Virus record (IMG/VR): IMGVR_UViG_3300042878_001826
Location: 1 to 64,000 of that record
Source of the DNA: a virus
Direction: 5' to 3' (one strand)
Length of the DNA: 64,000 bases
The notes below the pieces were generated by a model, which worked only from the letters and a program-made list of their open reading frames with translations, was not told where the DNA came from and did not search any database. The position numbers were made by a program, and so were the translations under genes. Numbering within the stretch: position 1 is the stretch's first letter; each line of letters opens with the position of its first letter. Positions 14 through 51,222 of this stretch are shown here, in pieces.

Positions 14-316
14 TCAAATACTTGTCCTGGTGTTTCCTGATACCAGGTCGTCATTACTATTTCCCACATCTAATATTATATTTAACTTTTCTTCTCTTAC
101 GTCTTCTATTGATTTGAAGTACATTGGATATTCTTTCGTTTTGACGAAGTATTCTATATCGTCGTGTGTTCCATAACTATTTGATACTACATAGCAGGTT
201 ATGCCATTTTCTTTATCGAATCCGCTCGCCATTCGTCCTTCGTAGTATTTTCCTTTTGTCCATCTCGCCCTGCTTGACGAATCCTCAAAATAGTTTCTGA
301 TACATAAAAATTTCAC
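14..316 (-). CDS. Hypothetical SH3-like phage protein with C-terminal RxxKL tag
   Basis: KFLCI..WTKGKYYE..YF pattern shared with 50971..51222; REEKLNIIL near C-terminus. Confidence 0.6.
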   Translation of the reverse strand: MKFLCIRNYFEDSSSRARWTKGKYYEGRMASGFDKENGITCYVVSNSYGTHDDIEYFVKTKEYPMYFKSIEDVREEKLNIILDVGNSNDDLVSGNTRTSI

Positions 317-552
317 TTCAATATTTGGTCAATTTTTTCATCTCTTTTTTCATCAAGAGTTGGTTCTTGTGCGGTAAGCTCACCAGCTTTGTTCGCTATA
401 CCTAAGAATGTCAAGAATACAAACATGTATATTCCAGCGAAGAACTTAGTGTCCCATTCTTTTGGAATGAAGATTGGTAAAACGAATATCATTAGAATAG
501 ACATAATACCTAATACCAGTGATATTATATTAAGACGCTTTCTGTTCAACAT
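313..552 (-). CDS. Small two-TM membrane protein with C-terminal tag
   Basis: Two hydrophobic segments; ends RDEKIDQILK; overlaps neighbours in an operon. Confidence 0.65.
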   Translation of the reverse strand: MLNRKRLNIISLVLGIMSILMIFVLPIFIPKEWDTKFFAGIYMFVFLTFLGIANKAGELTAQEPTLDEKRDEKIDQILK

Positions 553-802
553 TGACGTTTATCGGTGCGTTCACGCCTTTCATATCCTTCATAAACTGCA
601 TTACAAATCTCTCCAAATCTGATTCACTTTCAAAGAATATGTTGGCAGACTCTTCTTGTTTATCATTCGATAAACAGAATATGTTTCCATAGGTGAAAAC
701 GTTTGTGTAGTTTGTAACACCTGGTATTATAAAAACAGAAGAAACTTCCGAGTTTCCTATCATTATCTTCTGAACTTTGTTTCCTTTACTTATTCTTATC
801 AT
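530..802 (-). CDS. Hypothetical protein
   Basis: ORF tightly packed in minus-strand operon. Confidence 0.6.
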   Translation of the reverse strand: MIRISKGNKVQKIMIGNSEVSSVFIIPGVTNYTNVFTYGNIFCLSNDKQEESANIFFESESDLERFVMQFMKDMKGVNAPINVNVEQKAS

Positions 803-1008
803 TTTACAATCTTGAATTTTTTATTTACCCATTCCAATGGCCACATGTTGTATTCGTTGGCATATAGTATGTGGTTGAGACATACGAGAACTTCCGTGCT
901 CTCATTATCTACGTGAAGAACTTCATACACCTCATCTTTTTCAAAGAGTGGAGAACCTAAAAGGTTTTTGATGTCTTCGTTGCATTTCAATTTAAATCCT
1001 TTCTTCAT
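799..1008 (-). CDS. Hypothetical SH3-like phage protein
   Basis: Likely start MKKGFKLKC at 1008; FEKDEVYEV resembles the paralog pattern at 14..316 and 50971..51222. Confidence 0.55.
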   Translation of the reverse strand: MKKGFKLKCNEDIKNLLGSPLFEKDEVYEVLHVDNESTEVLVCLNHILYANEYNMWPLEWVNKKFKIVK

Positions 1009-1094
1009 GTCTATTTTATTAAAAAAATAAGTAATGTTTAAAAACAAAGAGGTTTTTTATTATAAAATATATACATAAAAACAATATCACTATA

Positions 1095-2030
1095 ATGAAG
1101 ATAAAACATAAGGTAGTCAAAGAATTTCAATACCTTTCTCCAGACAAAAAGATATTCATTCTGAAAGCAGGAACTATATTAGAAGAATACAACTACAAGG
1201 TAAAAACAGAGACTATAGCAATAGACAGAGACATCATTGATAACAATCCAGAGTTCTTTGAAATCATAGATTGGAAAGCTGAGCTTCTAACATACATAAA
1301 GGCAAACAAACTTCCTACACCGGCAGTTCTTACAAAGAAACTTATTCCATTCATTGATGAAATGGTTCTTTCTTCTATACAACAAAACACTCCGGTTGGA
1401 AACGTAGTAGACGAATCTGTAGTTAGAGAACTTGAAAGAAAAGAACAGGATCTGAATAGTAGAGACAAAAGAATCAAAGAAAAAGAAGACGAGATTGAAA
1501 TCAGATTAAAAAGAGTTGAGAAAAGAGAAGGTGAATACAAAGAAGACCTTAAATCTTTAGACAAAAAAGAAGATGATATTAGAGAAAAATCTAAAGACCT
1601 TATCGAGAAAGGATTGGATTTAGACGACAAGATGCAGGACTTAAACGAGAAGGAAAGAAACCTAGATAGATCAGCGTTAGAATCATCAAAAGAAATAGAC
1701 GAGAAGTACGTCAAACTTCAAGAAAAGATAGACAAAGATTTGAAGTCTTTATCAGAAAGAGAAAAAGAACTTGAAGTAAAAGCAAAGGATCTTAGTAAAA
1801 AAGAAACAGAGGTTTTAGAAAGTGAAATATATGAAAAAGCAAAATCATATGATATTCTTTATGAAACAGTAGAAGAGATAGAAGATGATATTTTAAATAT
1901 GAGTTCGACGATTGGTTTACTTAGCGACTTTCAATCAAAACCTTTTACTCAAGAATATCTTACACAAATACATAATTCTCTAAATAAACATATTCAAGAA
2001 ATAATCATAAAAATAAAAAACACTAAATAG
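1095..2030 (+). CDS. Coiled-coil hypothetical protein
   Basis: Long E/K/L heptad region; AAATATATA upstream at 1065. Confidence 0.75.
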   Translation: MKIKHKVVKEFQYLSPDKKIFILKAGTILEEYNYKVKTETIAIDRDIIDNNPEFFEIIDWKAELLTYIKANKLPTPAVLTKKLIPFIDEMVLSSIQQNTPVGNVVDESVVRELERKEQDLNSRDKRIKEKEDEIEIRLKRVEKREGEYKEDLKSLDKKEDDIREKSKDLIEKGLDLDDKMQDLNEKERNLDRSALESSKEIDEKYVKLQEKIDKDLKSLSEREKELEVKAKDLSKKETEVLESEIYEKAKSYDILYETVEEIEDDILNMSSTIGLLSDFQSKPFTQEYLTQIHNSLNKHIQEIIIKIKNTK

Positions 2031-2061
2031 AATTTTGGTGTTTTTTTTTAATATATAGAGT

Positions 2062-2784: not shown

Positions 2785-2794
2785 ATAAAGTATA

Positions 2795-3010
2795 TCATGA
2801 TGTTACATGATTAAACCTTAACTGAGATAGTAGATCAAAATCACTGTCTCTTTTTTTTTCGTCTTCATAGTATATGAACGAAGTATGGCTTTCTGGATCG
2901 CTTTCTTCTATCTCTATAGAATATCCACCTACGGTTCCTTTTTTAAACTCTATTCCTTTTCCCACTATTTCGGTGGCCATCGCCTTTACTTCTTTGTTGT
3001 TGAATATCAT
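2795..3010 (-). CDS. Hypothetical protein
   Basis: ORF overlapping the upstream gene stop; start may be the downstream MATE. Confidence 0.55.
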   Translation of the reverse strand: MIFNNKEVKAMATEIVGKGIEFKKGTVGGYSIEIEESDPESHTSFIYYEDEKKRDSDFDLLSQLRFNHVTS

Positions 3011-3705
3011 AGTTTGTTCTTTATTACTTTTGCTTGTTTTTCTGTTATGTATCCTCTCTTGTCGTAGAAATCTAAGACAGAACTTTGAAACGAATCTGTC
3101 TTACCTGCCTTGTCCAAGAACTTAAGCTGTCTTATTATGTTCGTGTATGATTCTGTCTCTTCTCCCAGAACTTCGTTTAGCTTTAGCTCTCTGTTCTCTT
3201 TTATACCTCCTTTTAGATGTTTGACGAATTGAAGCCACTGCCACTCTGTAATCACAAAGTAGTCTTTTGTATAAGGACCTATGATAATCTTCACCAGATT
3301 GTCTAATTGAATAAGATAAAGAGAATATACAGGACAGTTCTTATAGTTAAAAGATATTCTGTCTATGTTATGATGTATTTGAGATAAGTCATAGTCGTTG
3401 TCGGTATCGAATCGCATGTCGTCTCTATCTCTCATTTCATACTTTCCGAACTCTGAGAATAAAGATTCAAACTCATTTTCAGTAAGTTCGTTTATTTTTT
3501 TACCGTATTTTAAGAACTTTTCTACTGGCTTCCAAAAGTTTTTGTATGTTAAAAGTGATGGCTCTACTTCGGCAGAATTTCCAGAGAAGCTTTTGATACC
3601 TTCTATTTTTCGCTGACTACCCAATACTATGGTGTTGGTGTAGCCATTGCTTATGTCTACTCCAAAATCATCATCTACCGGTACATGGATGAAATAATCT
3701 AGCAT
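3007..3705 (-). CDS. Hypothetical protein with internal RELKLNEVLG tag and C-terminal SF..S..G.ITEKQ domain
   Basis: ORF track and motifs. Confidence 0.7.
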   Translation of the reverse strand: MLDYFIHVPVDDDFGVDISNGYTNTIVLGSQRKIEGIKSFSGNSAEVEPSLLTYKNFWKPVEKFLKYGKKINELTENEFESLFSEFGKYEMRDRDDMRFDTDNDYDLSQIHHNIDRISFNYKNCPVYSLYLIQLDNLVKIIIGPYTKDYFVITEWQWLQFVKHLKGGIKENRELKLNEVLGEETESYTNIIRQLKFLDKAGKTDSFQSSVLDFYDKRGYITEKQAKVIKNKL

Positions 3706-4034: not shown

Positions 4035-4038
4035 AAGA

Positions 4039-4046: not shown

Positions 4047-4051
4047 CAAAA

Positions 4052-4079: not shown

Positions 4080-4080
4080 G

Positions 4081-5156: not shown

Positions 5157-5543
5157 TTATCCCAACAAACTTTTCAATTGTTGCTCTCTGTTCCAAGCAG
5201 TATACCAGTTTGCATCAGTTAGAATTATATCGTTAAAAGCAACCAGTACTTTTTCACCATCCACATCTACTTCAAACTTCTTACCAATCTCTTCACTATC
5301 TGGAAAAAAAACAAACTTTTTCTTTATACCATACTTGTTACAGATACCCGCAATGAAACCTGGCTTTATGTTGGCGTAATAGCAACTAACGGGAGTTCCA
5401 TCAACATAAGTGCTATGTATTCTTTTGTAGACGAACCTGGTAGTAATGGTATCTAACAGAACCTCAACACCACCGTTGAGGAAAAATATTTTCGTCTCAC
5501 AAGCAATGTGTATCTTCTTGTCACTAAGCCGTCTTGCTTTCAT
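5157..5543 (-). CDS. Hypothetical protein with C-terminal tag
   Basis: Ends REQQLKSLLG. Confidence 0.65.
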   Translation of the reverse strand: MKARRLSDKKIHIACETKIFFLNGGVEVLLDTITTRFVYKRIHSTYVDGTPVSCYYANIKPGFIAGICNKYGIKKKFVFFPDSEEIGKKFEVDVDGEKVLVAFNDIILTDANWYTAWNREQQLKSLLG

Positions 5544-7104: not shown

Positions 7105-7134
7105 AGTTTTATGTATATGTAACAAAGATACGGA

Positions 7135-7700: not shown

Positions 7701-8105
7701 TTATAATATTTTACTGATTTTTATACTTCTTCGAATGGCTTGTAATACCGCCAGCTTTTCCTCTGCGGTCGTTATGTCCTTTTCGGAACTTTTTTCATTG
7801 ATTACATGTGAAATTGGACTTTTCATAAGTGACTGATGTTTTTTCGTTTGATGCTTGACATCCACCTCTGCTCTTTCGATATGATATTCGATAGTCTTTT
7901 CATCTATTACTTTTCTGTTTACCCATAGCCAATCTTCTACTATGTAAGAAGGCATGTTCATAACATCGTATAATTTGTTTTGATCTACATACAAATACCA
8001 AAAGTCATCAGCGATTTCGAATATCACCGATGACATCTCGAAAAGTCCACCATAGTTATTTTGGTGTGAGATTATTTTCCATCCACCAATCCTTCCTTCT
8101 CTCAT
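7701..8105 (-). CDS. Hypothetical protein with C-terminal tag
   Basis: Ends RRSIKISKIL; TATATTTA 4 nt upstream. Confidence 0.65.
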   Translation of the reverse strand: MREGRIGGWKIISHQNNYGGLFEMSSVIFEIADDFWYLYVDQNKLYDVMNMPSYIVEDWLWVNRKVIDEKTIEYHIERAEVDVKHQTKKHQSLMKSPISHVINEKSSEKDITTAEEKLAVLQAIRRSIKISKIL

Positions 8106-10886: not shown

Positions 10887-12731
10887 ATGTCAGTTGATAA
10901 AAAGTTCAAAAAGCTAGACGACATCTCGCACGTTATTCTTAGACCTGGTATGTATATCGGCTCTATCAAACCTCATACGGCCAACAAATGGATCGTGGAA
11001 GAAGGAAAGATGACACAACGAGAGATTACATATAACCCAGGATTCCTAAAGATATTCGATGAGATTGTTACGAACTCTGTCGATGAAAGTAAAAGAGAAG
11101 GCTCTAAATTAAACACCATAAAAGTAGACTTAGATAGAAAGAAAAACAAAGTCACTATCTGGGACAACGGTGGTATTCCTGTCGTAAAGAACACAGAACA
11201 CGATGAGTGGATTCCAGAGATGGTTTTCTCAAACCTAAAAGCAGGTTCTAACTTCGACGACACTGAAGAAAGGTCTTGGGCAGGAACGAATGGTGTTGGT
11301 TCTACACTTACAAACATTTACTCAAAAGAGTTTAAAATATCTACTTGTGATGGTAAGAATAGTTTTACACAAACTTTCTCTAATAACATGAGAGACCGTA
11401 CTCAACCAGTAGTAAAGAAAGCAAAAGCAAATCATACAGAAATATCCTACATAACAGACTTAGAGAAGTTTGGACTTACTGATATAGACGATGACCACTA
11501 CAAAATGATTGAGAAAAGAATCTATGATATTGCAGCTTGTAATACAGGATTGAAGATTTATTTCAATGGTGATTTAATAAACATAAACACATTCGAAGAC
11601 TATATCAAACTTTATACACAAGAATACTTCTACGAATTTAAGAAAGATAAAACCTGGTCATTAGGTATTGCTCTTTCACAAAACGGATTCCAGCAAGTAA
11701 GTTTCGCAAATACTACCGAGACTTATGATGGGGGAACACACGTAGACTATGTGATGAATCAAATCATAGTAAGTCTTAGAGAGTTCTTCTTAAAGAAACA
11801 TAAAGTAGATATCAAACCATCTGAATTAAAACAACATATGTTCTTATTCTTAGATGCAACGGTAATCAATCCTTCATTCTCATCTCAGACTAAAGAAAAA
11901 CTTATCACTGAGGTAAAAGAGTTTGGAACTACATTCGAAGTAAGTGCTAAACTTATACAGTCAATCTTAAAGTCAGAGATAGTAAACTCTATCTTAGATT
12001 GGATTCAACAAAAGAAGAATGCAGAGGATAGCAAACTTCAAAGAGATCTTAATAAGAAACTTACAAAGATTAAAGTTGAGAAACTTATCGATGCTAAAGG
12101 TAAAGACAGATGGAAGTATTCTATTGGATTGTTTGAGGGAGACTCTGCAATCTCTGCATTTAGAAAGTATAGAACACCAGAAACAATGGGTGCCTTCGCA
12201 CTTAAAGGAAAGTTTGTCAATGTATCTGAAATCACAAATCAAAAGCTGGTTCAGAATGATGAGGCAGTAAACTTAATGGCCTCTATTGGATTGAAACTTG
12301 GACAAGAGATAGATGTTAGAAATCTTAGATATGGTCGAGTTCTTATATTCACTGATGCTGATATGGATGGTAATGCAATTTCTGCTCTTTTGATAAACTT
12401 CTTCTACAAATACTGGCCGGATATGTTTGAGCGTAAGATGATTTATAAAGTAGAGACTCCAATCGTTGTTGCAATACCAAAAGCTAAGACAAAGAAGAAA
12501 GTTCTTTTCTATACACAGAACGAATACAATATTTGGGCTGAACAAAACGACCTAAAACAATTCGAGATAAAGTATAAGAAAGGATTGGCAGCACTTGTCG
12601 ATGATGAGTATGATGATATTATCAACAGACCTAGACTTACTCTAATAACAAAAGACGAAGCATCAAAAGGATCTTTAGAAACTTGGTTTGGTAAAAGTGC
12701 AGATTTAAGAAAGAACGAGTTGTTGAAATGA
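10887..12731 (+). CDS. Type IIA DNA topoisomerase, ATPase/TOPRIM subunit (T4 gp39+gp60-like)
   Basis: HVILRPGMYIG, EIVTNSVDE, DNGGIP, GTNGVG, EGDSA, DADMDG. Confidence 0.95.
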   Translation: MSVDKKFKKLDDISHVILRPGMYIGSIKPHTANKWIVEEGKMTQREITYNPGFLKIFDEIVTNSVDESKREGSKLNTIKVDLDRKKNKVTIWDNGGIPVVKNTEHDEWIPEMVFSNLKAGSNFDDTEERSWAGTNGVGSTLTNIYSKEFKISTCDGKNSFTQTFSNNMRDRTQPVVKKAKANHTEISYITDLEKFGLTDIDDDHYKMIEKRIYDIAACNTGLKIYFNGDLININTFEDYIKLYTQEYFYEFKKDKTWSLGIALSQNGFQQVSFANTTETYDGGTHVDYVMNQIIVSLREFFLKKHKVDIKPSELKQHMFLFLDATVINPSFSSQTKEKLITEVKEFGTTFEVSAKLIQSILKSEIVNSILDWIQQKKNAEDSKLQRDLNKKLTKIKVEKLIDAKGKDRWKYSIGLFEGDSAISAFRKYRTPETMGAFALKGKFVNVSEITNQKLVQNDEAVNLMASIGLKLGQEIDVRNLRYGRVLIFTDADMDGNAISALLINFFYKYWPDMFERKMIYKVETPIVVAIPKAKTKKKVLFYTQNEYNIWAEQNDLKQFEIKYKKGLAALVDDEYDDIINRPRLTLITKDEASKGSLETWFGKSADLRKNELLK

Positions 12732-12901
12732 TAGTAGTAACAGACAAGAAGGAAAGAGAAGACGACGTAAAGGTCGCCGATGGATATATTTCTTTGTCTG
12801 ACTTCAACAAGATGATAAAATCACAGAATAGCAGATTCAATGCTACTATGAGAAGGATGAAGATTCAAAGAGTAATCGAAAAGATTTTTGATACCAAATA
12901 G
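12728..12901 (+). CDS. 57-aa hypothetical protein with tag-like end (not in ORF track)
   Basis: ATGA overlap with topoisomerase stop; ends RRMKIQRVIEKIFDTK. Confidence 0.6.
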   Translation: MIVVTDKKEREDDVKVADGYISLSDFNKMIKSQNSRFNATMRRMKIQRVIEKIFDTK

Positions 12902-12922: not shown

Positions 12923-13237
12923 ATGAGAGATCGTGCGTATCGCAGATATATAGAAGAAAAAAAAGTCATAAGACGACTTAGTAATATCCGTGGGTATTGG
13001 TATCGATTTACCGATGCCAACGGTTTATACACAGTTGCACCTACTCTCGCAGACTTTATTGGAACAGAAAACAGCTTTAGATATAAGACCCACACAACTA
13101 CTAAATGGGATTCTAAATACAAAGAAAAGTATTCTTCTAACAAAACTACTGGCTGGAGGAACAAAGGACAGCTAAGAACAAGAGAAGAGAATAAACTTTT
13201 ACTGTTTAATATTTTAAAAGAATATGGAATTAAGTAA
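12923..13237 (+). CDS. Basic hypothetical protein
   Basis: ORF following promoter element. Confidence 0.65.
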   Translation: MRDRAYRRYIEEKKVIRRLSNIRGYWYRFTDANGLYTVAPTLADFIGTENSFRYKTHTTTKWDSKYKEKYSSNKTTGWRNKGQLRTREENKLLLFNILKEYGIK

Positions 13238-13748
13238 TCTGATACCGGATGGCTCTGATGCTTGGAAAGTCGGTAAGAACCAACTAACATACAAAAAGTA
13301 TGTCAATATTCCTATTTGTTATATCGAAGATGATGCAGTCTATGTTTTTTTAGACAAAAGAATAGTCAAACCCGTGTTGAAGATTACCAAAAGACTCGTA
13401 GAGCTTGACGTAGAGTTTTATTTTACTACACCTGAGTTTTCTAATCCAAAAGGTGTTGAAGACCATAAGAACGCAATAATACATCACTATTTTAGATCCT
13501 ACATACAAAAAGAGTTCTTCAAAGGATTCGAAGCGATGCAATTTGATCTTATACACAACATGACTAAATGGTGTACTAAAGAAGAATGCATTCCTTTGAT
13601 AAAAGAAAACTACGAAATAGTTAAAAAGATTGTCAATAGACAAGACTATGACTATTATACCAGTACAAAAAAATACGAATATCCACAAGATATAAGAGAC
13701 GATTTTGATAGAGTTTATAGAGAGATTCAGATAAACCAGATACTATAA
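13224..13748 (+). CDS. Hypothetical protein with C-terminal tag
   Basis: Ends REIQINQIL. Confidence 0.7.
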   Translation: MELSNLIPDGSDAWKVGKNQLTYKKYVNIPICYIEDDAVYVFLDKRIVKPVLKITKRLVELDVEFYFTTPEFSNPKGVEDHKNAIIHHYFRSYIQKEFFKGFEAMQFDLIHNMTKWCTKEECIPLIKENYEIVKKIVNRQDYDYYTSTKKYEYPQDIRDDFDRVYREIQINQIL

Positions 13749-13812: not shown

Positions 13813-14787
13813 ATGTTAGTTGACCTTATCATCGATGGGAATTATATTTTAAGCAAACTGGTTTTTACATTACATAAGAATAATCTACTTTTTGGTGCAT
13901 TACACAAGTCCCTAGAAAATACTATAAGTAACTACCGCAAATGGTATCCATTTGCCAATATTTACTTAGTTTCCGACTCTAAAGAAAAATCTTGGAGAAA
14001 ACAATACACAAGTGCATACAAAGCCACTCGAAAAAAAGACACCGACATTGACTGGAACTTCGTCTACGAAACCTATGGTGATTTCAAAAAAGGAATCGCA
14101 GCAGGTACTAAAGTATTAGAAGCACCTCACGTTGAAGGTGATGACTGGATTTCTTTCTTAGTTGAAAGAGCTAATAAAGAATCTCGTTCTACAATCATAG
14201 TTTCTAATGACTATGATATCAAACAAATAGTAAACTATGGTTTAGACCCTCTTTACATAAACATCATGTCTAACGAGATGTTCAACAAAGAGAAATTGTT
14301 TCTTCCTCAGAACTATCAAATATTCTTGAACAAAGTATCTAAGCTTCCAAACGACGATATCTTTGAACTGAACGACAATACAGAGTTTTTAGCTCTTATG
14401 GATAGATTCATAACTAAATATGAACTAAACGAGATAAACCCTATCGAATCTCTTATGATAAAGATTATATCTGGAGATCAAAGTGATAACATCTCTTCTG
14501 TTTGGAATGTAACTAAAAACGGTAAGACCAGAGGTATTGGCTCTAAAGGTGCCAAAGGAATCTATGACTCTTATATCGAAGAATTCGGTGAAGTAAACTT
14601 AGCTGATCCAGACTTACACGAAAACATCGCGGATTTAATCTGTGAGAAGAAAAAGTTGAGCAAGTCCAAGATTGAAGAAATCGTAGAGAACATAAAAGGA
14701 AACTTCAAGCTTATCGATTTGAGACTTCACAATCTTCCAGACGAGATTATCGAAAAGATGGAGACCGGGTATGAGAACGTTGGATAA
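13813..14787 (+). CDS. rnh: 5'-3' exonuclease / T4 RNase H-like flap endonuclease
   Basis: IIDGN, SWRK..YKATRK, EGDD, SNDYD, GDQSDNI..GIG.KGA. Confidence 0.85.
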   Translation: MLVDLIIDGNYILSKLVFTLHKNNLLFGALHKSLENTISNYRKWYPFANIYLVSDSKEKSWRKQYTSAYKATRKKDTDIDWNFVYETYGDFKKGIAAGTKVLEAPHVEGDDWISFLVERANKESRSTIIVSNDYDIKQIVNYGLDPLYINIMSNEMFNKEKLFLPQNYQIFLNKVSKLPNDDIFELNDNTEFLALMDRFITKYELNEINPIESLMIKIISGDQSDNISSVWNVTKNGKTRGIGSKGAKGIYDSYIEEFGEVNLADPDLHENIADLICEKKKLSKSKIEEIVENIKGNFKLIDLRLHNLPDEIIEKMETGYENVG

Positions 14788-15190
14788 CACAAAACTTAAA
14801 GAATATGAAAAGAAGTGGACTCCTGTAATAGAAAGAGTCTTCTCTTCATTGAAGAATCGTTCTATACTAAGAATGATCTGCTACTATAGTGAGTGGGTTT
14901 CTTCAGATACTGAACAGGATAAAACAGGAGTACCTAAGATACTTTCTAATTTAAAAGAAAAATTAGAGAGCTTTGATAGAATAGAGGTAGAGTGTAAAGT
15001 CTACAATCCGGCGACTGGTATATTCGAGTTCAAACTGAAGAACGGTAAGTACGTTCCAATAGATACAGAGTTTGAATATAAACTTTCCGATGATGAGATG
15101 ATAGAATTATTTGGAATAGACTTCTTGTCTAAGGTAGACAGAGTTTGGTCAAGAGAATACACACTTAATAACCTGCTTAACAATGGCTGA
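14771..15190 (+). CDS. Hypothetical protein with C-terminal tag
   Basis: EKKWTPVIE N-region; ends REYTLNNLLNNG. Confidence 0.65.
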   Translation: MRTLDNTKLKEYEKKWTPVIERVFSSLKNRSILRMICYYSEWVSSDTEQDKTGVPKILSNLKEKLESFDRIEVECKVYNPATGIFEFKLKNGKYVPIDTEFEYKLSDDEMIELFGIDFLSKVDRVWSREYTLNNLLNNG

Positions 15191-15609: not shown

Positions 15610-16161
15610 ATGAAAATAGTTGAAAGAGAGTCCACATTAAAGTGGTACGTACTAAGAGCACAAAGCAACAGAGAAAAATCTGTTTCTGAAAAGCTAATCA
15701 AAGAAGGAGAAGTAGGAGACCTTATGGGTAAACTTGGAAGAGTCATCGTTCCTATTGAAAACTCATTCTATTTGAAAAACGGAAAGAAAGTAAAAAGAGA
15801 GAAGATTAAATTCCCTGGATATATCTTTATCGAGACCAACGCAATCGGAGAACTTAAATATTTCTTAAAAGGACTTAACGGTGCTCAAGGATTCTTGACA
15901 AGTAGAGCAGGAGACATACTTCCACTTACACAGTTAGAAGTTGATAGAATGATTGGTGAACAACAAAGAGTAAAAGAAGAAGTCGAAGTTGAAGTAAGAT
16001 TCATCGTTGGAGAAGAAGTTCAGATATTAGATGGACCTTTCAATACTTTCACTGGAAAGATTGAGCAAGTAAGCGGAGAAAAAGTAAAAGTTGCTGTTTC
16101 TGTATTTGGTAGAATCACTTTAATCGAGCTTGGAATAAACCAGATCGACAAAAAAGCATAA
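15610..16161 (+). CDS. nusG: Transcription elongation/antitermination factor NusG
   Basis: WYVLRAQSNREK, FPGYIF, KOW GEEVQILDGPFNTFTG, VSVFGRIT. Confidence 0.93.
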   Translation: MKIVERESTLKWYVLRAQSNREKSVSEKLIKEGEVGDLMGKLGRVIVPIENSFYLKNGKKVKREKIKFPGYIFIETNAIGELKYFLKGLNGAQGFLTSRAGDILPLTQLEVDRMIGEQQRVKEEVEVEVRFIVGEEVQILDGPFNTFTGKIEQVSGEKVKVAVSVFGRITLIELGINQIDKKA

Positions 16162-16361
16162 TGAATGATAGCCAACACCAAAAGAATCTTTATGAAAAGA
16201 TACTTCAATCGTCTGCGTACATAAACAAAGTCGCAAAAAGTGGTGCTGGCAATTATATCATTACCTCAAAGCAAGTCTCTGATATGATTTCTGAGATAAT
16301 GACGGAAAGAGTTGAGGCCAGAAAGAAAAAGATAATAAAGATACTATCATGGAACAAGTAG
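16161..16361 (+). CDS. Mini-protein: major-capsid-like fragment plus C-terminal tag
   Basis: KSGAGNYIITSKQVS resembles the gp23 RGxGNFIIxSxxV motif; ends RKKKIIKILS. Confidence 0.55.
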   Translation: MNDSQHQKNLYEKILQSSAYINKVAKSGAGNYIITSKQVSDMISEIMTERVEARKKKIIKILSWNK

Positions 16362-16531
16362 GCGACAGAATCATACTTGAAGGAGTTCTTCAGCAGTTTG
16401 ATAGGCTCGGCTCAAATGGTCGAATCTATCCAGAAACATATCATGCAGAAGCATATGAAAGGCTTATCAAAAGACTGATTCCTGATAAAAGGATGGAAAA
16501 GATAAATTCATTGAGAAACTCATGGAAGTAG
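16349..16531 (+). CDS. Mini-protein: prohead-protease-like fragment plus C-terminal tag
   Basis: LEGVLQQFD..SNGRIYP resembles the gp21 N-terminal motif; ends RMEKINSL. Confidence 0.6.
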   Translation: MEQVGDRIILEGVLQQFDRLGSNGRIYPETYHAEAYERLIKRLIPDKRMEKINSLRNSWK

Positions 16532-16677
16532 AAAAGGTAAAGGAAATTATGAACAAGATGGGTTCTATGATAAATAGTGGTCAGCCTATGTTTTCCAAAG
16601 AATATCTGATGAGAATGCTTGGCTTGAAAAAGAATGATTTAAGAATGAATAAGATAAACAAAATGTTCAATGAATAA
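16522..16677 (+). CDS. 51-aa mini-protein: portal-like fragment plus tag (not in ORF track)
   Basis: Manual translation ..GQPMFSKEYLMRMLGLKKNDLRMNKINKMFNE; fills the gap and overlaps both neighbours. Confidence 0.55.
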   Translation: MEVEKVKEIMNKMGSMINSGQPMFSKEYLMRMLGLKKNDLRMNKINKMFNE

Positions 16678-17089
16678 GCAAGAAAGATACGACAGAACTT
16701 ATTTGAATATGGCGAAGGAGTGGGCCAAGCTTTCTCATTGTACCAGAAAGCAGGTAGGTGCTCTTATAGTAAAGAATGGTATGATTATATCAGATGGATA
16801 TAACGGAACCGCAGCAGGTCAAGAAAACGCTTGTGAGCTTGATAATGGTGAGACTAAATGGGATGTTATCCACGGTGAAGCCAATGCCATTTTAAAGTGT
16901 GCTCGTCACGGACATTCTTGCGAAGGTGGAACTCTTTATCAAACACATTCTCCTTGTAGAGATTGTTCAAAACTTATTCTTCAATCTGGTATCAAAAAAC
17001 TTGTTTACGTAGAAGAATACAAAGACATAACTGGGTTAGACTTTCTAAGAGAAGCTGGTATTGAAATAGTAAAATATGATTGGCTTTGA
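16670..17089 (+). CDS. dCMP deaminase
   Basis: SHCTRKQVGA, GYNG, HGEANA, SPCRDC. Confidence 0.93.
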   Translation: MNKQERYDRTYLNMAKEWAKLSHCTRKQVGALIVKNGMIISDGYNGTAAGQENACELDNGETKWDVIHGEANAILKCARHGHSCEGGTLYQTHSPCRDCSKLILQSGIKKLVYVEEYKDITGLDFLREAGIEIVKYDWL

Positions 17090-17334
17090 ATAATTTAGGA
17101 GATAATTTTCTAAACGAGTTAGAAAAGCTAAGTGAATACTTTTCATATGAAATGGAAATTGATGAGGCGATGGCACCGGTATTCAAATTCAAACATAAAA
17201 GTACTAAAAAAGAATATTCATATAGGTTAAGTATGATTGATATAAAAAATTATGGTGGTCCTAGTGTGGTAAAAATGCTTGATGAATTGAAAAGTGAAAT
17301 AAGAGAAGATAAACTAAACGATTTAGGAATATGA
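17080..17334 (+). CDS. Hypothetical protein with C-terminal tag
   Basis: Ends REDKLNDLGI; TTG start uncertain. Confidence 0.65.
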   Translation: MALNNLGDNFLNELEKLSEYFSYEMEIDEAMAPVFKFKHKSTKKEYSYRLSMIDIKNYGGPSVVKMLDELKSEIREDKLNDLGI

Positions 17335-18806: not shown

Positions 18807-19226
18807 CTAAATACCCAAATCTTTAAGCTTGTTGTCTCTTAATGTAGAAATAGATATACCTTTACAGATATCTGTAAGAATGTCTTCAACTACTTCTATC
18901 TTTGGATCTAAATCTGAACAGAACTTCTCGATTATTAAATCTCTTAAAACAATTACGTCTTTGTTCTTATAGACGCCAATGTTATATCTTCCATTAGGAA
19001 GAGTGGCGTTCGTAATCCATAAACTATTTTCCTCTAATCGCCATTTGTCGTCTGACAATGTGTACTCTATATTCATTTCGAATACAGTATCATCAGACCC
19101 CTTCGTCTCCATCTTTCTTTTGTATGTTCTGGTCTTTAAATTTGGATTATCCTCTGTCCAAACCAGACTTCCGTTTTTGGTGGCAGAGATTAGTGTTCTT
19201 ACTATATCATTTAGTTGTTCTTTCAT
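18807..19226 (-). CDS. Hypothetical protein with C-terminal tag
   Basis: Ends RDNKLKDLGI. Confidence 0.7.
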   Translation of the reverse strand: MKEQLNDIVRTLISATKNGSLVWTEDNPNLKTRTYKRKMETKGSDDTVFEMNIEYTLSDDKWRLEENSLWITNATLPNGRYNIGVYKNKDVIVLRDLIIEKFCSDLDPKIEVVEDILTDICKGISISTLRDNKLKDLGI

Positions 19227-19540
19227 ATTCCAATTTTTTCCAGTTTTTGATTTCTTATCTCAGCGAAGAATATCTTATCGAAATGCTCTTTTATAAATAC
19301 TTTGTTTCGATTGGTGTAATCAGACAACTGAAATGGACTCTCAACATAGCTACCATCTTCATTTCTATGAATATAAAGACGCCAATCGTTATCACTACCT
19401 TTTTTATATGTGAATAGAACCAGTGTATAGTGTTTATCTTCCATATAGTCTGGATAATACTTATACTCTCTTACATAACCGACTTCAGTATCTTCTTGCT
19501 TAACAAGCTTGAAACCTATTTCTAAAAACATATTTATCAT
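19223..19540 (-). CDS. Hypothetical protein with C-terminal tag
   Basis: Ends RNQKLEKIGI. Confidence 0.7.
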   Translation of the reverse strand: MINMFLEIGFKLVKQEDTEVGYVREYKYYPDYMEDKHYTLVLFTYKKGSDNDWRLYIHRNEDGSYVESPFQLSDYTNRNKVFIKEHFDKIFFAEIRNQKLEKIGI

Positions 19541-22366: not shown

Positions 22367-23628
22367 TATGCTGTCTTCTTTTTAAAGAAATCTTGAAAGA
22401 CTTTCCAGATTCCACCTACTTCATCAATTTTACCTATTTCAAAGTTATTTCTTTTATCAGCAATTGTTTTATAACTTTGCCATAAGTCACCTTCACTTCT
22501 TCTACATATCTCTATATAAATCATATATTGTACAGAGTTTAATATATCAGCATCCAATATTCTGGCACAATCTACCGCGTCCGATCTATCCCAAACATCA
22601 CCATCAGATGCTTGAGCAGCATATATGTTCCAATCTTTAGAATATCTTTCTTTTATGATTTTACTCATCAATTCCAATGCAGAAATAACAACCGTACCAC
22701 CACTTTCTCTAGAGTTGAAGAACTCTTCTTCATTTACCTCTTTTGCGACCGTAGTATGTCTTATGAAAACCATTTCAATCCTTTCATATTGTTTAGTCAA
22801 AAACATATAAAGTAACATGAAAAATCTTTTTGCTATGTCCTTTTCTTTTTCTCCCATCGATCCAGATACGTCCATAACACAGAACATCACAGCAGACGTT
22901 ACAGGAACTGCTACTTTTTCGAAGTTGTTGTATTGAAGGTCGACCTCTTCCATGAAAGATACTGAAAGCTTCATCTTCTTTAGCTTATCCAACTCTTTCT
23001 CTAACTCAGCAATCAAAACCAAATCAGTCTCGGTCTTCAACTTATCCTCTATCTCCTTTATCTTCTTGTCGAAAAACATACCTACAGCCATTCTTCTAGC
23101 CATAGAGTTTTTGTAGGATCTTGTTATATTTAACTTGCTTGGATTTCCGTAGTTGGAATATCCTGCTCTCTTTTGTTTAAAGTCTACTATTGAGTTTAGA
23201 TGTTTCTTAACCATGTCTGGTAGTTCTAAATCAGCGAAGAAGTAGTCTAAAAACTCTTCTCTACTTATCGTAACTGAAAATTCATCTTCTGTTGGGTCGC
23301 CATCTTTCGAACCTTTCTGACCTTTTCCCTTTCCTTGTCCACCTTTTGGCTTTTCAATAGTATCTCCTTGAGTGTATTCTTTATTTCCTGGATGAACATG
23401 CTTTTTATCACCACTATCTTTATCATAGTGAAATTGTGGTTCACCTATTCCTTTAACAGGAACTTTTATATTGCCGTTGGAAGAAGTAAGATCTTTTACA
23501 TTAGTATTTTTGACGATGTCTGGCAATGCTTTCTTAATCTGATCCTCTACTCTTTTAAGCAATCTCTGTCTGTTTTCTGAAGATTTCCCTTTAGAGTTCT
23601 TTCTTCGATCTACTATATTTATTGACAT
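22366..23628 (-). CDS. yeaH: YeaH/YhbH (DUF444) vWA-domain protein
   Basis: DRRKN.KGKSSENRQR, AVMFCVMDVSGSM, ESGGTV, AQASDGD. Confidence 0.92.
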   Translation of the reverse strand: MSINIVDRRKNSKGKSSENRQRLLKRVEDQIKKALPDIVKNTNVKDLTSSNGNIKVPVKGIGEPQFHYDKDSGDKKHVHPGNKEYTQGDTIEKPKGGQGKGKGQKGSKDGDPTEDEFSVTISREEFLDYFFADLELPDMVKKHLNSIVDFKQKRAGYSNYGNPSKLNITRSYKNSMARRMAVGMFFDKKIKEIEDKLKTETDLVLIAELEKELDKLKKMKLSVSFMEEVDLQYNNFEKVAVPVTSAVMFCVMDVSGSMGEKEKDIAKRFFMLLYMFLTKQYERIEMVFIRHTTVAKEVNEEEFFNSRESGGTVVISALELMSKIIKERYSKDWNIYAAQASDGDVWDRSDAVDCARILDADILNSVQYMIYIEICRRSEGDLWQSYKTIADKRNNFEIGKIDEVGGIWKVFQDFFKKKTA

Positions 23629-23724
23629 CTATCAGGTTTTTAATTTTTATCATACGAAGAAGGTGCTTGATGGAATCTAATTCGATTCCACCATAGCCCG
23701 GTCTTCTATATTTTTTTAACATCA

Positions 23725-40000: not shown

Positions 40001-40525
40001 ATGGTTCCAAGAAGTCAGGATAGGAAAAGCATACTTGATCTGAAGAAGGATCCCGACTTCAGAAGCATGCTTGTCGACACGCTTTGTCAAGGAATAAGAC
40101 TTACTTCTGATTTCAGAGATATAGTAGACTATGTAATCGATAATAAGCTACACCTTTTTGAAACTGATGACTTCTCAGGCTCTTTCTACCCTGAAGATGA
40201 CGATACACTTGATTTAGTATTTCCTGCAATCAGGAGAGTCTGGGGAAAGGTGTTCGTTGATCCTCCAAAAATACTTAAAGACAAGAAGCTGGAATTGTTC
40301 CAGCTTCTTTTCGATATTGATGACTTTGTTGATTATTTGATTGAAATAATGCCTAAGGTCAAAACTTCTTTGATAGAATTTGATAAGTTAGATAGAACCG
40401 CAGAAACTTTGGTTCTAATCGTCGATAACTATATTGCAGGAATCTTAGAGTCAACTCGTAATAGAGACGATATACAAATGGAAATAAGGGATTTAAGAAT
40501 AAGTAAAACTTTGAAGAAATGGTAA
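40001..40525 (+). CDS. Hypothetical protein with C-terminal tag
   Basis: LVFPAIRRVW motif; ends RDLRISKTLKKW. Confidence 0.65.
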   Translation: MVPRSQDRKSILDLKKDPDFRSMLVDTLCQGIRLTSDFRDIVDYVIDNKLHLFETDDFSGSFYPEDDDTLDLVFPAIRRVWGKVFVDPPKILKDKKLELFQLLFDIDDFVDYLIEIMPKVKTSLIEFDKLDRTAETLVLIVDNYIAGILESTRNRDDIQMEIRDLRISKTLKKW

Positions 40526-40863
40526 GTTGGTATATAAAATGTAAAGGGTTTAAGAGTCAACAATATTTGAAGAAAGTAGAAGAGACTGTCGAACCATTTA
40601 TGGAATACTTTATAGGTAGAATCTCAGATATTGAAGAATATGACATCGACAAGATAGAAGAACTTTACAAAGAGATATTCGACGAACTACCAGTTATGAG
40701 ACTTCGTACAAATAAGGACTATAACTATTCTCCACAATCAAAGGAAATAGAAATATGGTTAGAATACAACAAAGAAACTGATATCATCTTTGTCGACCCT
40801 AAGAAGTCGATAAGAAGAGAGATACAACTAAACAACTTATTTAAGAATGATGAAAAAATATGA
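40519..40863 (+). CDS. Hypothetical protein with C-terminal tag
   Basis: RREIQLNNLFK near end. Confidence 0.65.
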   Translation: MVSWYIKCKGFKSQQYLKKVEETVEPFMEYFIGRISDIEEYDIDKIEELYKEIFDELPVMRLRTNKDYNYSPQSKEIEIWLEYNKETDIIFVDPKKSIRREIQLNNLFKNDEKI

Positions 40864-41137
40864 TGACTTCAAAAAGGATAAAGAAGCTCTTTATCTTACG
40901 AAAGAAGAGATGACTACGGTCAAATGGACCAAATACGTTATCGTGGTACCCACAGAGGAAGACCGTAATGAACTTATGGAAGCATTTGAACACATTCACT
41001 ACTCTGACATAGATACAGACAACATAGCGGTCAACCAGCTTGCTCACGAGTATCTGGATGATGATAGAGAACCAGGAACCTACAACAATATAGTGGTAGA
41101 TCCGGCGGCCTATGAAAAACTAAGAGTAAAGAGATGA
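40847..41137 (+). CDS. Hypothetical protein
   Basis: Overlapping operon ORF. Confidence 0.6.
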   Translation: MMKKYDDFKKDKEALYLTKEEMTTVKWTKYVIVVPTEEDRNELMEAFEHIHYSDIDTDNIAVNQLAHEYLDDDREPGTYNNIVVDPAAYEKLRVKR

Positions 41138-41373
41138 TTAGTAGAACTTATACTATAGATGTTGGTAAAATGAAACCATCTAAAAAGAAATGGTGGCAAA
41201 TCTGGAGAAAGAATGGAGATTCTGCTGAAGAAATCTTGAAAGATTTAGTTTCAATCTATTCCGAAAATATCAATTTCAAATCTTTTGAGAGAAAGAACTC
41301 TATACACAGAATATATAATATTGAACCAATACCATTAGATTTTAAAAAAGATTATTGGTTCCCTAACAGATAA
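41134..41373 (+). CDS. Mini-protein resembling a portal (gp20) fragment
   Basis: [18 protein letters not shown]..and KDYWFP mirror gp20 YIDVGNM..KAE..EDYWL; internal RKNSIHRIY tag variant. Confidence 0.6.
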
Positions 41374-41389
41374 AAAAACAATACAATAT

Positions 41390-42460
41390 ATGAGCAAAGA
41401 CTACTACAGCGTTTTAGGAGTAGATAGAAACGCAACAGAAGAACAGATCAAAAAAGCTTATCGAAAGAAAGCGATGGAGTTCCATCCTGATAAAAATCCA
41501 GGAAACCCAGCGGCTGAAACAAAATTCAAAGAAGCTGCAGAAGCTTATGATGTACTTTCAGATGCTGGTAAAAAGTCTAACTACGACAACTTTGGTTCTG
41601 CAACAGGAAATCCTTTTGGTGGAGGTGGTGGAAACCCATTCGGTGGTGGAGGTCATGGATTCAATATGGATGACATCTTTTCACAATTTGGTGACATATT
41701 TGGAAACAGAGGTGGTGGAAAACAACAAAGAAGAAAAGCAAGAGGTTCTGATTTAAGAATCAAAGTTGTTTTGAATATTGATGAGATATTGAAAGGATGT
41801 ACTAAGAAACTTAGGTATAAAAGACATACTAAATGTGATCCTTGTGCTGGAAAAGGTGGTACTGACGTAAGAGAATGTTTGGCTTGTAAAGGAAGTGGAC
41901 ATAGAACGGTTGTTCAGAATACACCATTTGGACAAATGAGAACAGAAACAACTTGTCCTGATTGTAGAGGTACAGGAAGTATAATAAGAAATCAATGTAA
42001 TCATTGTCATGGAGAAGGAACTCAACTTAAAGAACAGGTTATTGATGTTGAAGTACCTGTAGGAGTATCAAACGGAATGCAACTTAATATGCAAGGGTAT
42101 GGTAATGATGTAAGAGATGGTGTTGCTGGCGACCTACATATATTAGTGGAAGAAGCACAAGACTTTTCATATAAGAGAGAAGGAAACAATTTGATAGTAG
42201 AAAAGACTATATCTGTTATAGATGCAATCTGTGGTGCACACGTCAAAGTATCTACTCCGCACGGAGAGCAATCTCTGTATATCGAACCAGGAACTGAACA
42301 TGGTAGAACTGCTAGAATAGGTGGTAAAGGTATTCCAGATATACATTATGGATTGGGAGATTTGTTTATAAAAATATCAATAAAGATTCCTAGAAACATA
42401 GATATGGACGAGCAACACATACTCGAAAAACTAAAAGATTCCAAAAACTTTCAAGTATAA
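41390..42460 (+). CDS. dnaJ: Chaperone DnaJ (class A)
   Basis: J domain HPD, G/F region, four CxxCxGxG repeats. Confidence 0.97.
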
Positions 42461-47824: not shown

Positions 47825-47831
47825 AATTTAT

Positions 47832-49349: not shown

Positions 49350-49417
49350 AGTCTATATATTCAAAAACTAAATCCCGAATTGGTTTTTTAATATATAAAA
49401 GAAACTAATATTTCAAT

Positions 49418-50200
49418 ATGGCAGATGAATACGTACCATACCAAGGAGGACTTACGATAGACGAGTTTATCGATAGTATAAACACTGAGCTTACAATAGG
49501 ATGTTCACTTCCAAGAACATTACCAGATGCTATGATCAGACAGATAGTAGAGAAAAGAGCTTTACCTTGGTTCTATAGATCCTACCAATACGCCGTTCAG
49601 AAGATGTACTTTCTTGTTAAAAAAGAAGCTTTCTTCTCTGAAGAGTTTACAAAATACAACTACGTACAGGTTCCATGTGAGATTCAATCTGTAATCTACT
49701 TATACGAAGTAAGAGGTGATAGTCTTTTTCAGTTAGGTATAAATACTCCTAACCTTTCTGTGAACTTAGGGGTTACTAACCAACCATACTTGTCTTCTTA
49801 TGTTACAACAATCGGGGAGTTAGGTATGTACAAAACTTTATTAGACAATATGTCTGACTTATTGAACCAATTGAACAAATATACTTTGAAGTATCAGTTC
49901 AACCAGTTGAACCATAGACTTCACATTTTAACAAATGTTAAATATGATGTGATTATGGAAGCTTATGCTAATATACCACAGGAAAATCTTTTCAATGACG
50001 ATTTGTTCTTCAAATATTGTGTTGGGTATGCAAAAACTGCATTAGGAAATATGGTTGGAAGATATGATTTTACTTTGCCCGGTGGTGTGAAGATAGCATC
50101 AGCAGACTTAATCTCACAAGGAAAAGAAGAAGTAAAAGAAGTTGAAGAAGAAGTAAAAGGACAATCAAACTCAGCATGGTTCTTTATGGTGAAGAAATGA
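49418..50200 (+). CDS. Neck/head-tail adaptor protein (T4 gp13-like)
   Basis: C-terminal K..LG...GRY..TLPGGV......GKEE..EVEEE pattern; late-type motif at 49389. Confidence 0.65.
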   Translation: MADEYVPYQGGLTIDEFIDSINTELTIGCSLPRTLPDAMIRQIVEKRALPWFYRSYQYAVQKMYFLVKKEAFFSEEFTKYNYVQVPCEIQSVIYLYEVRGDSLFQLGINTPNLSVNLGVTNQPYLSSYVTTIGELGMYKTLLDNMSDLLNQLNKYTLKYQFNQLNHRLHILTNVKYDVIMEAYANIPQENLFNDDLFFKYCVGYAKTALGNMVGRYDFTLPGGVKIASADLISQGKEEVKEVEEEVKGQSNSAWFFMVKK

Positions 50201-50293
50201 CTTAACCTATTAATAATCAATAAGTTAGTACGTCGTGCTTGGAATAGACAAGAGGTCCAGACTAAGTAGAGAAGAAATAAAAAACTTAATATC

Positions 50294-50956
50294 ATGAAAT
50301 ACTTAAAGAGATATAACGAAAATTTTAAAGGTTTTGCTAATGTTGATACTAGTCAAGAAGCTTTCAATAGATGTCAAAACTTATCAGAGGACGAATTATT
50401 AAAAATATTAAGAGAAAATTGTAAAAACTTTTCACTTAGTAATGACCTTTTATATAGAAATAAAGAATATTCTGGTGATTTTCAATTATTTAAACCATAT
50501 AAAAGAAGAGCAAACCCAGTAACTTTTCCAAAATTCTTTAATAGAATAGAAGACGATTCAAACTATCCCGTTAAAAGAAAGTTGTCTTTGATAGGTGGTA
50601 CGAATCCATCATTCATATCGGATTTGTTCCGGGATAAAATGGCAAGCAATATCAATAGCGATTCAGATTTTACAGTTTATATAGTTATACCATTTGATAA
50701 TTCTAAGATTGTTTTTTGTCCAGTTCCGGATTTATTATTTTTAGACGATAGAACAAAAGAAGAATATGTGAGTGGTGAGCCAGTTAGTGATAAAAACTTT
50801 GTGATGGTTGAATATACAAAAGACTTTAAAATTCCTGAGGAAGAGTTAAGTAAACTACCCGGTCATAAATCATCTCATTCGGGTTATGAGTTTTTTACAT
50901 CCAGTAATTGTTTACTAATTCATGAATCATATATAGATATTTTAAACCAAATTTAA
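50294..50956 (+). CDS. Putative virion internal protein
   Basis: MKYLKRYNE N-terminus. Confidence 0.55.
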   Translation: MKYLKRYNENFKGFANVDTSQEAFNRCQNLSEDELLKILRENCKNFSLSNDLLYRNKEYSGDFQLFKPYKRRANPVTFPKFFNRIEDDSNYPVKRKLSLIGGTNPSFISDLFRDKMASNINSDSDFTVYIVIPFDNSKIVFCPVPDLLFLDDRTKEEYVSGEPVSDKNFVMVEYTKDFKIPEEELSKLPGHKSSHSGYEFFTSSNCLLIHESYIDILNQI

Positions 50957-50962
50957 ATTAAT

Positions 50963-50986
50963 AAAACCAGTCAATTGACTGGTTTT
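50963..50986. terminator. Bidirectional terminator-like palindrome
   Basis: aaaaccagtcaattgactggtttt between convergent genes. Confidence 0.75.
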
Positions 50987-51222
50987 ATTATTTCATCTAT
51001 TCTCATTTCTCTCCATTCGTCTAATGTAACGAAGTAGTTCGAAGCAGGCATGTATCTTTGTCCTTGATCGTTCATCACATCGACTATACTCATTCTATCA
51101 GGACCAAACTGATCCATAAGAACCGTATACTGCTTTCCGTAAGTAAATGTTTCCCAATTCTTTGTGATACAGACAATGATGTCGTCTCTTTTTAAGAGTT
51201 TAGTAGAAGATGTATTTTTCAT
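50971..51222 (-). CDS. SH3-like phage protein with C-terminal tag
   Basis: IVCI..FTYGKQY.V..ND.G..YF; ends REMRIDEII. Confidence 0.65.
   Translation of the reverse strand: MKNTSSTKLLKRDDIIVCITKNWETFTYGKQYTVLMDQFGPDRMSIVDVMNDQGQRYMPASNYFVTLDEWREMRIDEIIKPVN

Follow-up and report, generated by a model that had tools for sequence, protein, structure and literature searches.

A short C-terminal peptide shared by small, unrelated proteins of a huge-phage clade: a candidate docking helix

Terminal peptides that are shared by unrelated proteins and recognized by one reader are already a known kind of device. Degrons of AAA+ proteases (ssrA for ClpXP and ClpAP; SpoIIAB for ClpCP) lie at the extreme C-terminus, have an aliphatic end, are transferable and serve one machine. 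Cargo peptides of bacterial microcompartments (BMCs) and encapsulins are terminal helices or peptides that follow a flexible linker on unrelated carriers, again with one reader, and the capsid targeting sequence (CTS) on the internal proteins of phage T4 is a phage-encoded peptide common to unrelated proteins that are sorted as a group. Poxvirus ankyrin/PRANC (F-box-like), F-box and SOCS-box proteins form large, fast-evolving viral sets in which variable bodies, encoded in variable genome regions, carry a conserved C-terminal box. The PCNA-interacting peptide (PIP) box, bacterial clamp motifs and T4 gp45-binding C-termini are short C-terminal motifs with hydrophobic residues at i, i+3 and i+4 that bring many clients to one ring, while SHOCT (PF09851) is a short C-terminal helical module, ending K-x-x-L-L, found on many unrelated proteins. 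Here we describe a peptide that resembles each of these in part: a tag of about ten residues at the C-termini of many small proteins encoded by IMG/VR virus record IMGVR_UViG_3300042878_001826, positions 1 to 64,000 of which (the window) were the starting point. The shared motif is real, its signal lies in the protein rather than in the DNA, and the tag is probably a docking helix.

The window is the first 64 kb (64,000 nucleotides) of a linear contig of 150,251 bp (CheckV 61% complete). The DNA has a G+C content of 33%, and the window contains T4-type replication genes (topoisomerase II, an RNase H-like 5'-3' exonuclease and a gp32-like protein) as well as genes for NusG, UvdE, RNA ligase, PrkA/YeaH/SpoVR, DnaK, GrpE and DnaJ. 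The nearest public relatives, both entered as 'uncultured phage', are LR745206.1 (634,780 bp) and LR756502.1 (642,428 bp), whose topoisomerase II is 79–81% identical at the amino-acid level; LR756504.1 (636,363 bp) is more distant (41%). In PMC7162821, the genomes >634 kb fall within the 'Mahaphage' clade, for which replication in Bacteroidetes is predicted.

The original prediction, made from the window, held that about 18 unrelated small proteins end in R-[DE]-x-[KQR]-[LI]-x-x-[LI]-[LG], and proposed a comparison with composition-matched controls. A looser pattern, R-x-x-[KQRT]-[LI]-x-x-[LIMV]-[LGIF], which was shaped on the data, gives 31 matches among the 210 genes of the contig, and 28 of these end within 18 residues of the C-terminus. 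Shuffling leads to an expectation of 0.45 C-terminal matches when whole proteins are permuted and 0.58 when only the last 30 residues are (maximum 4 in 1000); the observation is stronger than had been claimed. Internal matches occur exactly as often as expected (3 against 3.0), and C-terminal ones are absent from reversed proteins and from 495 rejected overlapping open reading frames (ORFs). Because the loose pattern was shaped on the data, the stricter pattern of the prediction was also run unchanged. It finds 5 C-terminal matches in the window, 67 in LR756502.1 and, as a hold-out, 11 in the remainder of the contig (0.00–0.02 expected from shuffles per set). None occurs at the C-termini of proteins from G001 (342 kb) or G002 (369 kb, 33.6% G+C), two complete huge phages that are just as AT-rich. 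The signal is also seen when no pattern is imposed: counted from the end, position −10 of LR756502.1 proteins is 3.9-fold enriched in Arg and position −9 of LR756504.1 proteins 4.7-fold, and comparable Arg enrichment is found in none of 74 other phage loci.

As judged from the sequences, the signal is in the protein and not in the DNA, because there is variation among synonymous codons, the tag is retained in orthologues, and Lys never occurs at position 0 of the motif. Eight codons (TTA, TTG, CTT, CTA, CTG, ATT, ATC, ATA) are used at the Leu/Ile positions, and the tags of LR756502.1 use several synonymous codons at every position, with a mild lean to A-ending ones. On the basis of this variation a DNA-level repeat or a promoter within the tag is rejected. 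With position 0 left free in the search, Arg occupies it in 17/17, 86/88 and 23/24 C-terminal cases in three genomes (126/129). The tag is kept in all five contig/LR756502.1 orthologue pairs, with different residues at the free positions. One tagged protein has a family of 142 metagenomic homologues in which 14 columns are invariant, R113 and L117 among them, and in the family of the protein encoded at 18807..19226 (21 homologues) hardly any change is seen over the last 17 residues.

The consensus for the clade is R-[DEN]-x-[KR]-[LI]-x-x-[LI]-[LG]-[IK]-COOH, with a hydrophobic residue preferred at positions −4 and −1. The nine-residue core ends 0–1 residues from the C-terminus in 81/145 tagged proteins of LR756502.1 and 38/55 of LR756504.1, typical endings being LGI, IL, ILK and LL. 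Plotted on a helical wheel, positions −4, −1, +4, +7 and +8 would form one apolar face, centred on Arg and bordered by Lys and the acidic residue. AlphaFold2 models of two tagged proteins, calculated from family alignments, have bodies with a predicted local distance difference test score (pLDDT) of 86–94, and the succession of secondary-structure elements is not the same in the two. After the body comes a weaker linker and then a low-confidence terminal helix (linker and tag helix about 48–78); in one model the helix spans residues 105–120 and its pLDDT drops from 78 to 48, and in that of 18807..19226 the body reaches 86–93 and the tag helix (126–136) about 53. That the best-conserved segment of a family should be left unpacked in its model is what would be expected of a partner-binding motif. 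A fold search of the first model against the PDB gave no match at an expectation value (E) ≤ 0.001. The idea of a short amphipathic and modular helix is supported by these data: the bodies are mutually dissimilar, and the tag is selected at the protein level, kept in orthologues and lineage-specific.

Comparison among phages shows that the tag is a trait of one clade, with a variant in a sister lineage. In LR756502.1, 145 of 995 genes are tagged (2.1 expected), and about 14% of the proteins of the clade, or about one gene in seven, carry the tag. A profile built from the tags of the contig finds 64 sites in LR745206.1 and 67 in LR756502.1, with none in T4, Vi01, XacN1 or RsoM2USA. LR756504.1 has at least 55 tagged genes (1.8 expected) with a distinct consensus, R-K-x-K-I-x-x-L-L-COOH; the profile finds 2 of its sites, compared with 55 for the pattern and about 100 or more from the Arg signal, and is considered specific to clade A because it misses this variant. 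Viral contigs whose DnaK is at least 72% or PrkA at least 80% identical to the window proteins are mostly tagged, and more distant loci (DnaK 64–68%) are without the tag.

The tagged genes are mostly small ORFans with a fast turnover. Tagged proteins range from 51 to 731 residues, and 142 of the 145 in LR756502.1 are shorter than 250. No mutual similarity was detected by BLASTP among 30 tagged bodies of the contig, nor any Pfam (E ≤ 0.1) or PHROG family in the ten that were scanned, and at this level the bodies are unrelated, as had been proposed. Thirty larger tagged proteins from relatives yielded three hits, to a riboflavin-kinase domain, to BtpA (partial) and to DUF6011, each in a different protein; the others gave no match. 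The riboflavin-kinase-domain protein is encoded by LR756502.1, so the further claim that no recognizable enzyme carries the tag holds within the window and fails in this relative. Homologues in LR756502.1 were found for 5/30 tagged as against 85/180 untagged contig proteins, and in LR756504.1 for 0/30 as against 53/180. Neither transmembrane-like segments nor net charge separates tagged from untagged small proteins. Tagged genes cluster: LR756502.1 has 54 adjacent tagged pairs where 21 are expected, five tagged genes stand in a row at 110182–112049 of the contig, and LR756504.1 has an array of seven paralogues. They are also frequent at the ends of the LR756502.1 record (26/95 genes in the first 40 kb; 38/85 in the last 40 kb, 600–642 kb), and these end regions may be the ones that enter the cell first. 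In LR756504.1, 21/84 genes at 600–636 kb are tagged, and the tagged genes piled up at the ends are transcribed away from the junction.

Promoter-like motifs divide the genes into two presumed classes. A T-run followed by TAATATATA lies 13–38 nt, often exactly 13 nt, before 32 gene starts on the contig, ahead of structural genes and of genes whose products start with MK[YI]LK[RT]F. It has the look of the clade's late promoter, and the 13-nt spacing would leave little or no leader. None of the 32 sites precedes a tagged gene. Units that contain tagged genes are instead preceded by a TAnnTTTG box, which matches the −7 element of Bacteroidetes promoters. With small genes of LR756502.1 assigned to classes by these motifs, 43/170 are tagged in TAnnTTTG units compared with 7/208 in TAATATAT units (p = 3e-10), a contrast not seen in LR756504.1. 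The tagged genes would accordingly belong to host-type, presumably early, units and not to late-type ones. A second shared peptide, the N-terminal MK[YI]LK[RT]F[NE]E, occurs on unrelated proteins of late-type units and has the reverse bias (MK.LK.F: 2/170 in TAnnTTTG and 35/208 in TAATATAT units). The predicted mutual exclusion of the two peptides is borne out in LR756502.1, where none of 54 proteins with the N-terminal motif is also tagged, against 7.9 expected. One carrier of the N-terminal motif is a 2',5'-RNA-ligase/Acb1-like phosphoesterase, of a type directed against the cyclic-oligonucleotide-based antiphage signalling system (anti-CBASS), at 58172–58702 (+) of the window, with TAATATATA 13 nt upstream.

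Table 1. Tag-bearing ORFs, promoter-like sites and N-terminal motif sites. Positions are those of the window unless given as contig positions.
Feature	Position	Strand	Length (aa)	Tag copy and remarks
Tagged ORF	14..316	−	100	REEKLNIIL at 71–97, 18 aa before stop
Tagged ORF	313..552	−	79	RDEKIDQIL-K at 319–345; profile E 2.8e-4
ORF with internal copy	3007..3705	−	232	RELKLNEVLG at about 3166–3192, then conserved 52-aa extension
Tagged ORF	5157..5543	−	128	REQQLKSLL-G at 5163–5189
Tagged ORF	7701..8105	−	134	RSIKISKIL-COOH at 7704–7730; LR756502.1 homologue also has a tag-like end
ORF with degenerate copy, doubtful	12728..12901	+	57	RRMKIQRVI at 12851–12877; below profile
Tagged ORF	13224..13748	+	174	REIQINQIL-COOH at 13719–13745
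Tagged ORF	14771..15190	+	139	REYTLNNLL-NNG at 15152–15178
Three overlapping mini-ORFs, degenerate	16161..16677	+	66/60/51	RKKKIIKIL, RMEKINSL, RMNKINKMF
Tagged ORF	17080..17334	+	84	REDKLNDLGI-COOH at 17302–17331; identical ending in relatives L158 and L234
Tagged ORF	18807..19226	−	139	RDNKLKDLGI-COOH at 18810–18839
Tagged ORF	19223..19540	−	105	RNQKLEKIGI-COOH at 19226–19255
Tagged ORF	40001..40525	+	174	RDLRISKTL-KKW at 40487–40513; between grpE and dnaJ
Tagged ORF	40519..40863	+	114	REIQLNNLF-KNDEKI at 40816–40842; identical ending in relative L277
Tagged ORF	50971..51222	−	83	REMRIDEII-KPVN at 50986–51012
T-run + TAATATATA sites, window	2049, 9515, 25801, 27187(−), 27236, 32338, 49389, 52345, 55627, 57598, 58159			21 more on contig
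N-terminal motif sites, window	50294, 55640, 57611, 58172, 25814, 27267			
N-terminal motif sites, contig	78968, 79177, 92359, 105996, 107274, 107594, 123466			

All 16 C-terminal examples listed by the original prediction are present at their ORFs (Table 1). Twelve of them fit the consensus well (14, 313, 5157, 7701, 13224, 14771, 17080, 18807, 19223, 40001, 40519, 50971), and the four at 12728, 16161, 16349 and 16522 are degenerate copies that were left out when the profile was built and do not reach it, which makes that at 12728..12901 doubtful. The degenerate endings within 16161..16677, also below the profile, are kept as C-termini in the close relatives L158 and L234. Orthologous endings of the better copies include RDKKIDKVLL in LR756502.1 (for 14771..15190; 37% identity) and RDIQINMIL-COOH in a 178-aa ORF at the locus of LR745206.1 that matches 13224..13748. 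Two internal copies had also been reported. The one in 3007..3705 is real: its LR745206.1 orthologue (44% identity) has RDIKLNQIFD at the same place, so the motif is kept even away from a stop codon. The variant in 41134 matches neither pattern nor profile. A weak match in a 44-aa ORF at 23591..23725 (−), which lies across the PrkA/YeaH junction and is unlikely to be a gene, was taken as chance. At 39461–42460, four small genes, of which 40001 and 40519 are tagged, come between grpE and dnaJ; the two chaperone genes are adjacent in LR756502.1, and in the window accessory genes seem to have been inserted into a chaperone operon. Elsewhere in the window, a stand-alone cREC_REC (cyclic-phosphate processing receiver) domain protein is encoded at 51809–52186 (−) and conserved in both complete relatives.

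From the enrichment, position, protein-level selection, modularity, clade restriction with its variant, and promoter-class bias of the tag, we infer binding, a partner and a consequence. The tag is probably a docking or address helix read by one partner. A poorly ordered linker would connect the helix with the body, and the reader would grip the helix, with the Arg probably paired with an acidic residue of the binding pocket, and a whole class of early accessory proteins would be handled together through this one reader. Docking on a common hub had been proposed originally, and modularity, protein-level selection and lineage restriction fit this proposal; the candidate hubs ClpC, PrkA and DnaK each occur in tagless phages as well. 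Candidates for the reader are a phage protein specific to the clade, a host protein, or one of the encoded machines with a newly acquired specificity.

A tentative suggestion, which we consider doubtful as it stands, is that the putative reader belongs to a proteolysis and chaperone set: an N-domain-less ClpC with ClpP1/ClpP2 and ClpS, or DnaK/DnaJ/GrpE, or PrkA. This set is favoured because the tag lies at the chain end, has an aliphatic end and marks presumably early proteins, and because the phages encode their own ClpC, ClpP and ClpS. The tag would then act either as a degron that times the removal of its carriers or as a handle on interchangeable adaptors. The kinds of hub named in the original prediction are indeed encoded by the clade (PrkA/YeaH/SpoVR and DnaK/DnaJ/GrpE), and the Clp proteins come in addition. 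The ClpC of the contig (74604–76730 (−); L001:10604-12730) matches Bacillus subtilis ClpC with E = 7e-212, and its Walker motifs and VGF ClpP-docking loop align; the N-terminal domain is absent. Complete relatives also encode two ClpP paralogues and ClpS. Homologues of ClpC, PrkA/YeaH/SpoVR, DnaK, DnaJ and GrpE are present in LR756502.1 and LR756504.1, and ClpC is also found in LR745206.1. Both full-length and N-less forms of ClpC are common in AT-rich viral contigs (508 matches).

Several further analyses bear on the reader. Complex prediction for the 708-aa ClpC with a tagged protein (alignment A2) returned a score of 0.00 and a mark of 0.32, which speaks neither for nor against binding. In clade A the N-terminus of ClpC consists of some 45 low-complexity residues, and LR756504.1 lacks it; for this reason it is not a conserved receptor domain. 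A phyletic profile (genes shared by LR756502.1 and LR756504.1 and absent from G001/G002) retains 136 genes; with tagless controls as distant as these, the list is too long to be of use. A tagged small gene lies directly downstream of one ClpP paralogue in both LR756502.1 (111651–112817 (−)) and LR756504.1 (291481–292514 (−)); the two tagged proteins are not homologous, and the link is probably a coincidence. PDZ_2 (PF13180) is absent from the four tag-bearing records (the contig, LR745206.1, LR756502.1 and LR756504.1).

Several points weigh against a docking helix with a single reader. The distribution of the tag is not linked to that of ClpC (tagless in 76 loci and the complete phage G002), PrkA (21 loci and G001) or DnaK (23 loci), and since each occurs in tagless huge phages, none is singled out; nor is any reader singled out by the distribution survey or by profile searches for PDZ_2, BMC, encapsulin and gp45. 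The bodies may share folds beyond sequence detection, two models having been made. The gene calls are a simple greedy set of non-overlapping longest ORFs, and the promoter classes are guesses based on motifs. Finally, a tightly coupled downstream gene follows 58% of tagged genes in LR756502.1, compared with 34% otherwise (p = 2e-7), and this bias, together with the lean to A-ending codons, leaves room for a translational role.

Such a role is the substance of the main rival to docking, which we nevertheless consider unlikely: the tag would be a cis-acting nascent peptide that slows release in the ribosome tunnel and favours restart on an overlapping downstream gene, in a host phylum that is sparing in its use of Shine-Dalgarno sequences. 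Apart from the coupling and the codon lean, the preferred distance of Arg from the stop (−10 in LR756502.1, −9 in LR756504.1) would suit this explanation. However, a coupled downstream gene is missing for about 40% of tagged genes, and the tag stands anywhere from 0 to 17 residues ahead of the stop, where known arrest peptides require exact spacing; the internal copy, 52 residues from its stop, is also conserved in an orthologue. The coupling bias itself is equally explained by dense arrays of small genes, as seen in the excess of adjacent tagged pairs.

About equally unlikely is self-association, in which the small proteins would dimerize or bundle with each other through the tag. Terminal oligomerization helices are common, the SHOCT domain being an example, and the modelled terminal helix is amphipathic. 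A shared helix would, however, cross-link some 30 to 145 proteins indiscriminately, and the invariant Arg in the middle of the apolar face, for which Lys is never substituted, suggests a specific polar contact; the tagged proteins scanned have no Pfam match, SHOCT included.

Less likely again is a virion-packaging signal that loads the tagged proteins into the capsid for injection. The phage has a very large capsid, the terminal peptide is found on many unrelated proteins, and its anatomy is like that of cargo-loading peptides. Against this stand the depletion of the tag in the TAATATAT units that drive structural genes, its absence downstream of all 32 late-type sites of the contig, and the different, N-terminal motif that marks late units and never coincides with the tag. 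Shell genes are likewise not found: PF04454 (Linocin_M18) and PF00936 (BMC) are absent from the contig, LR745206.1, LR756502.1 and LR756504.1.

A membrane-targeting helix, similar to the C-terminal helices of MinD or FtsA, would also be C-terminal and amphipathic with basic residues. This is very unlikely, given that membrane helices conserve hydrophobicity alone and the tag conserves polar positions (Arg, Asp/Glu/Asn, Lys), prefers an acidic residue at +1 in clade A and has just three or four aliphatics on its apolar face. Most strongly disfavoured is a functionless tag, a relic of one multiplied ancestral gene or a by-product of composition, DNA or RNA at gene ends: tandem arrays and an AT-rich genome would be in its favour, but 28 matches remain against 0.58 after shuffling of the last 30 residues, two equally AT-rich huge phages have none, synonymous codons vary, one tagged body is a riboflavin-kinase, and the tag is nearly invariant while the bodies diverge beyond recognition, which requires purifying selection on the tag itself.

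Returning to the docking helix, most genes of huge phages are small ORFans that offer no handle, and the tag defines a functional class among them (non-late, fast-evolving accessory genes). A ten-residue peptide is also an experimental entry, as bait for its reader and as a portable label in assays of stability, localization and binding. It is possible, though far from probable, that the tag belongs to a phage protein-sorting system without a described counterpart in bacterial viruses, in which the most plausible reader would be the phage's N-domain-less ClpC together with ClpP1/ClpP2, or else an adaptor to it that is specific to the clade. One reader would serve some 30 to 145 early accessory proteins, which would be cleared at a set time; alternatively, the tagged proteins could be adaptors that bring host proteins, for instance of defence systems, to destruction. 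The R-[DEN] and R-K variants would reflect co-evolution of tag and reader, as the sister-clade variant suggests, and this co-variation could be used to find the reader. If the reader is the phage's Clp or chaperone machinery, the outcome would be a virus-encoded, proteome-wide form of post-translational control.

By the features compared here, the tag seems to match none of the known shared peptides. No description of such a tag was found in the literature searched, which included the portions of PMC7162821 and PMC7824862 (huge and jumbo phages) retrieved by keywords for candidate hubs. SHOCT is longer (about 28 residues) and has a different register, and its profile does not match ten tagged proteins at E ≤ 0.1; the model works on this genome, as an untagged 331-aa contig protein matches it. 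In contrast to PIP-box and clamp motifs, whose consensus (Q-x-x-[LIM]-x-x-[FY]-[FY] or QL[SD]LF) is not met by the column counts, the tag lacks the Gln and the aromatic pair, has an invariant Arg and is carried by ORFans, not by replication enzymes. PF09116 (gp45), the one clamp type covered, finds the T4 protein and nothing in the four tag-bearing records. The CTS of T4 is N-terminal, cut by the prohead protease and present on late proteins, whereas the tag is C-terminal and belongs to host-type units; BMC and encapsulin peptides differ likewise in that tagged genes lie outside the late class. AAA+ degrons are closest in their position and in the presence of ClpC, ClpP and ClpS in the clade. 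They differ in their unrelated sequence, and the tag is genome-encoded on about 14% of genes, predicted to be helical, and built around an invariant Arg; ClpC, moreover, occurs in tagless phages too. PRANC and F-box proteins share with the tagged set its overall organization; their box is about 40 residues long and connects to eukaryotic ubiquitin ligases, a common degradation machine, where the tag is a ten-residue helix in a bacterial virus. A sorting system read by Clp, if true, would be the bacterial-virus analogue of the F-box and PRANC families.

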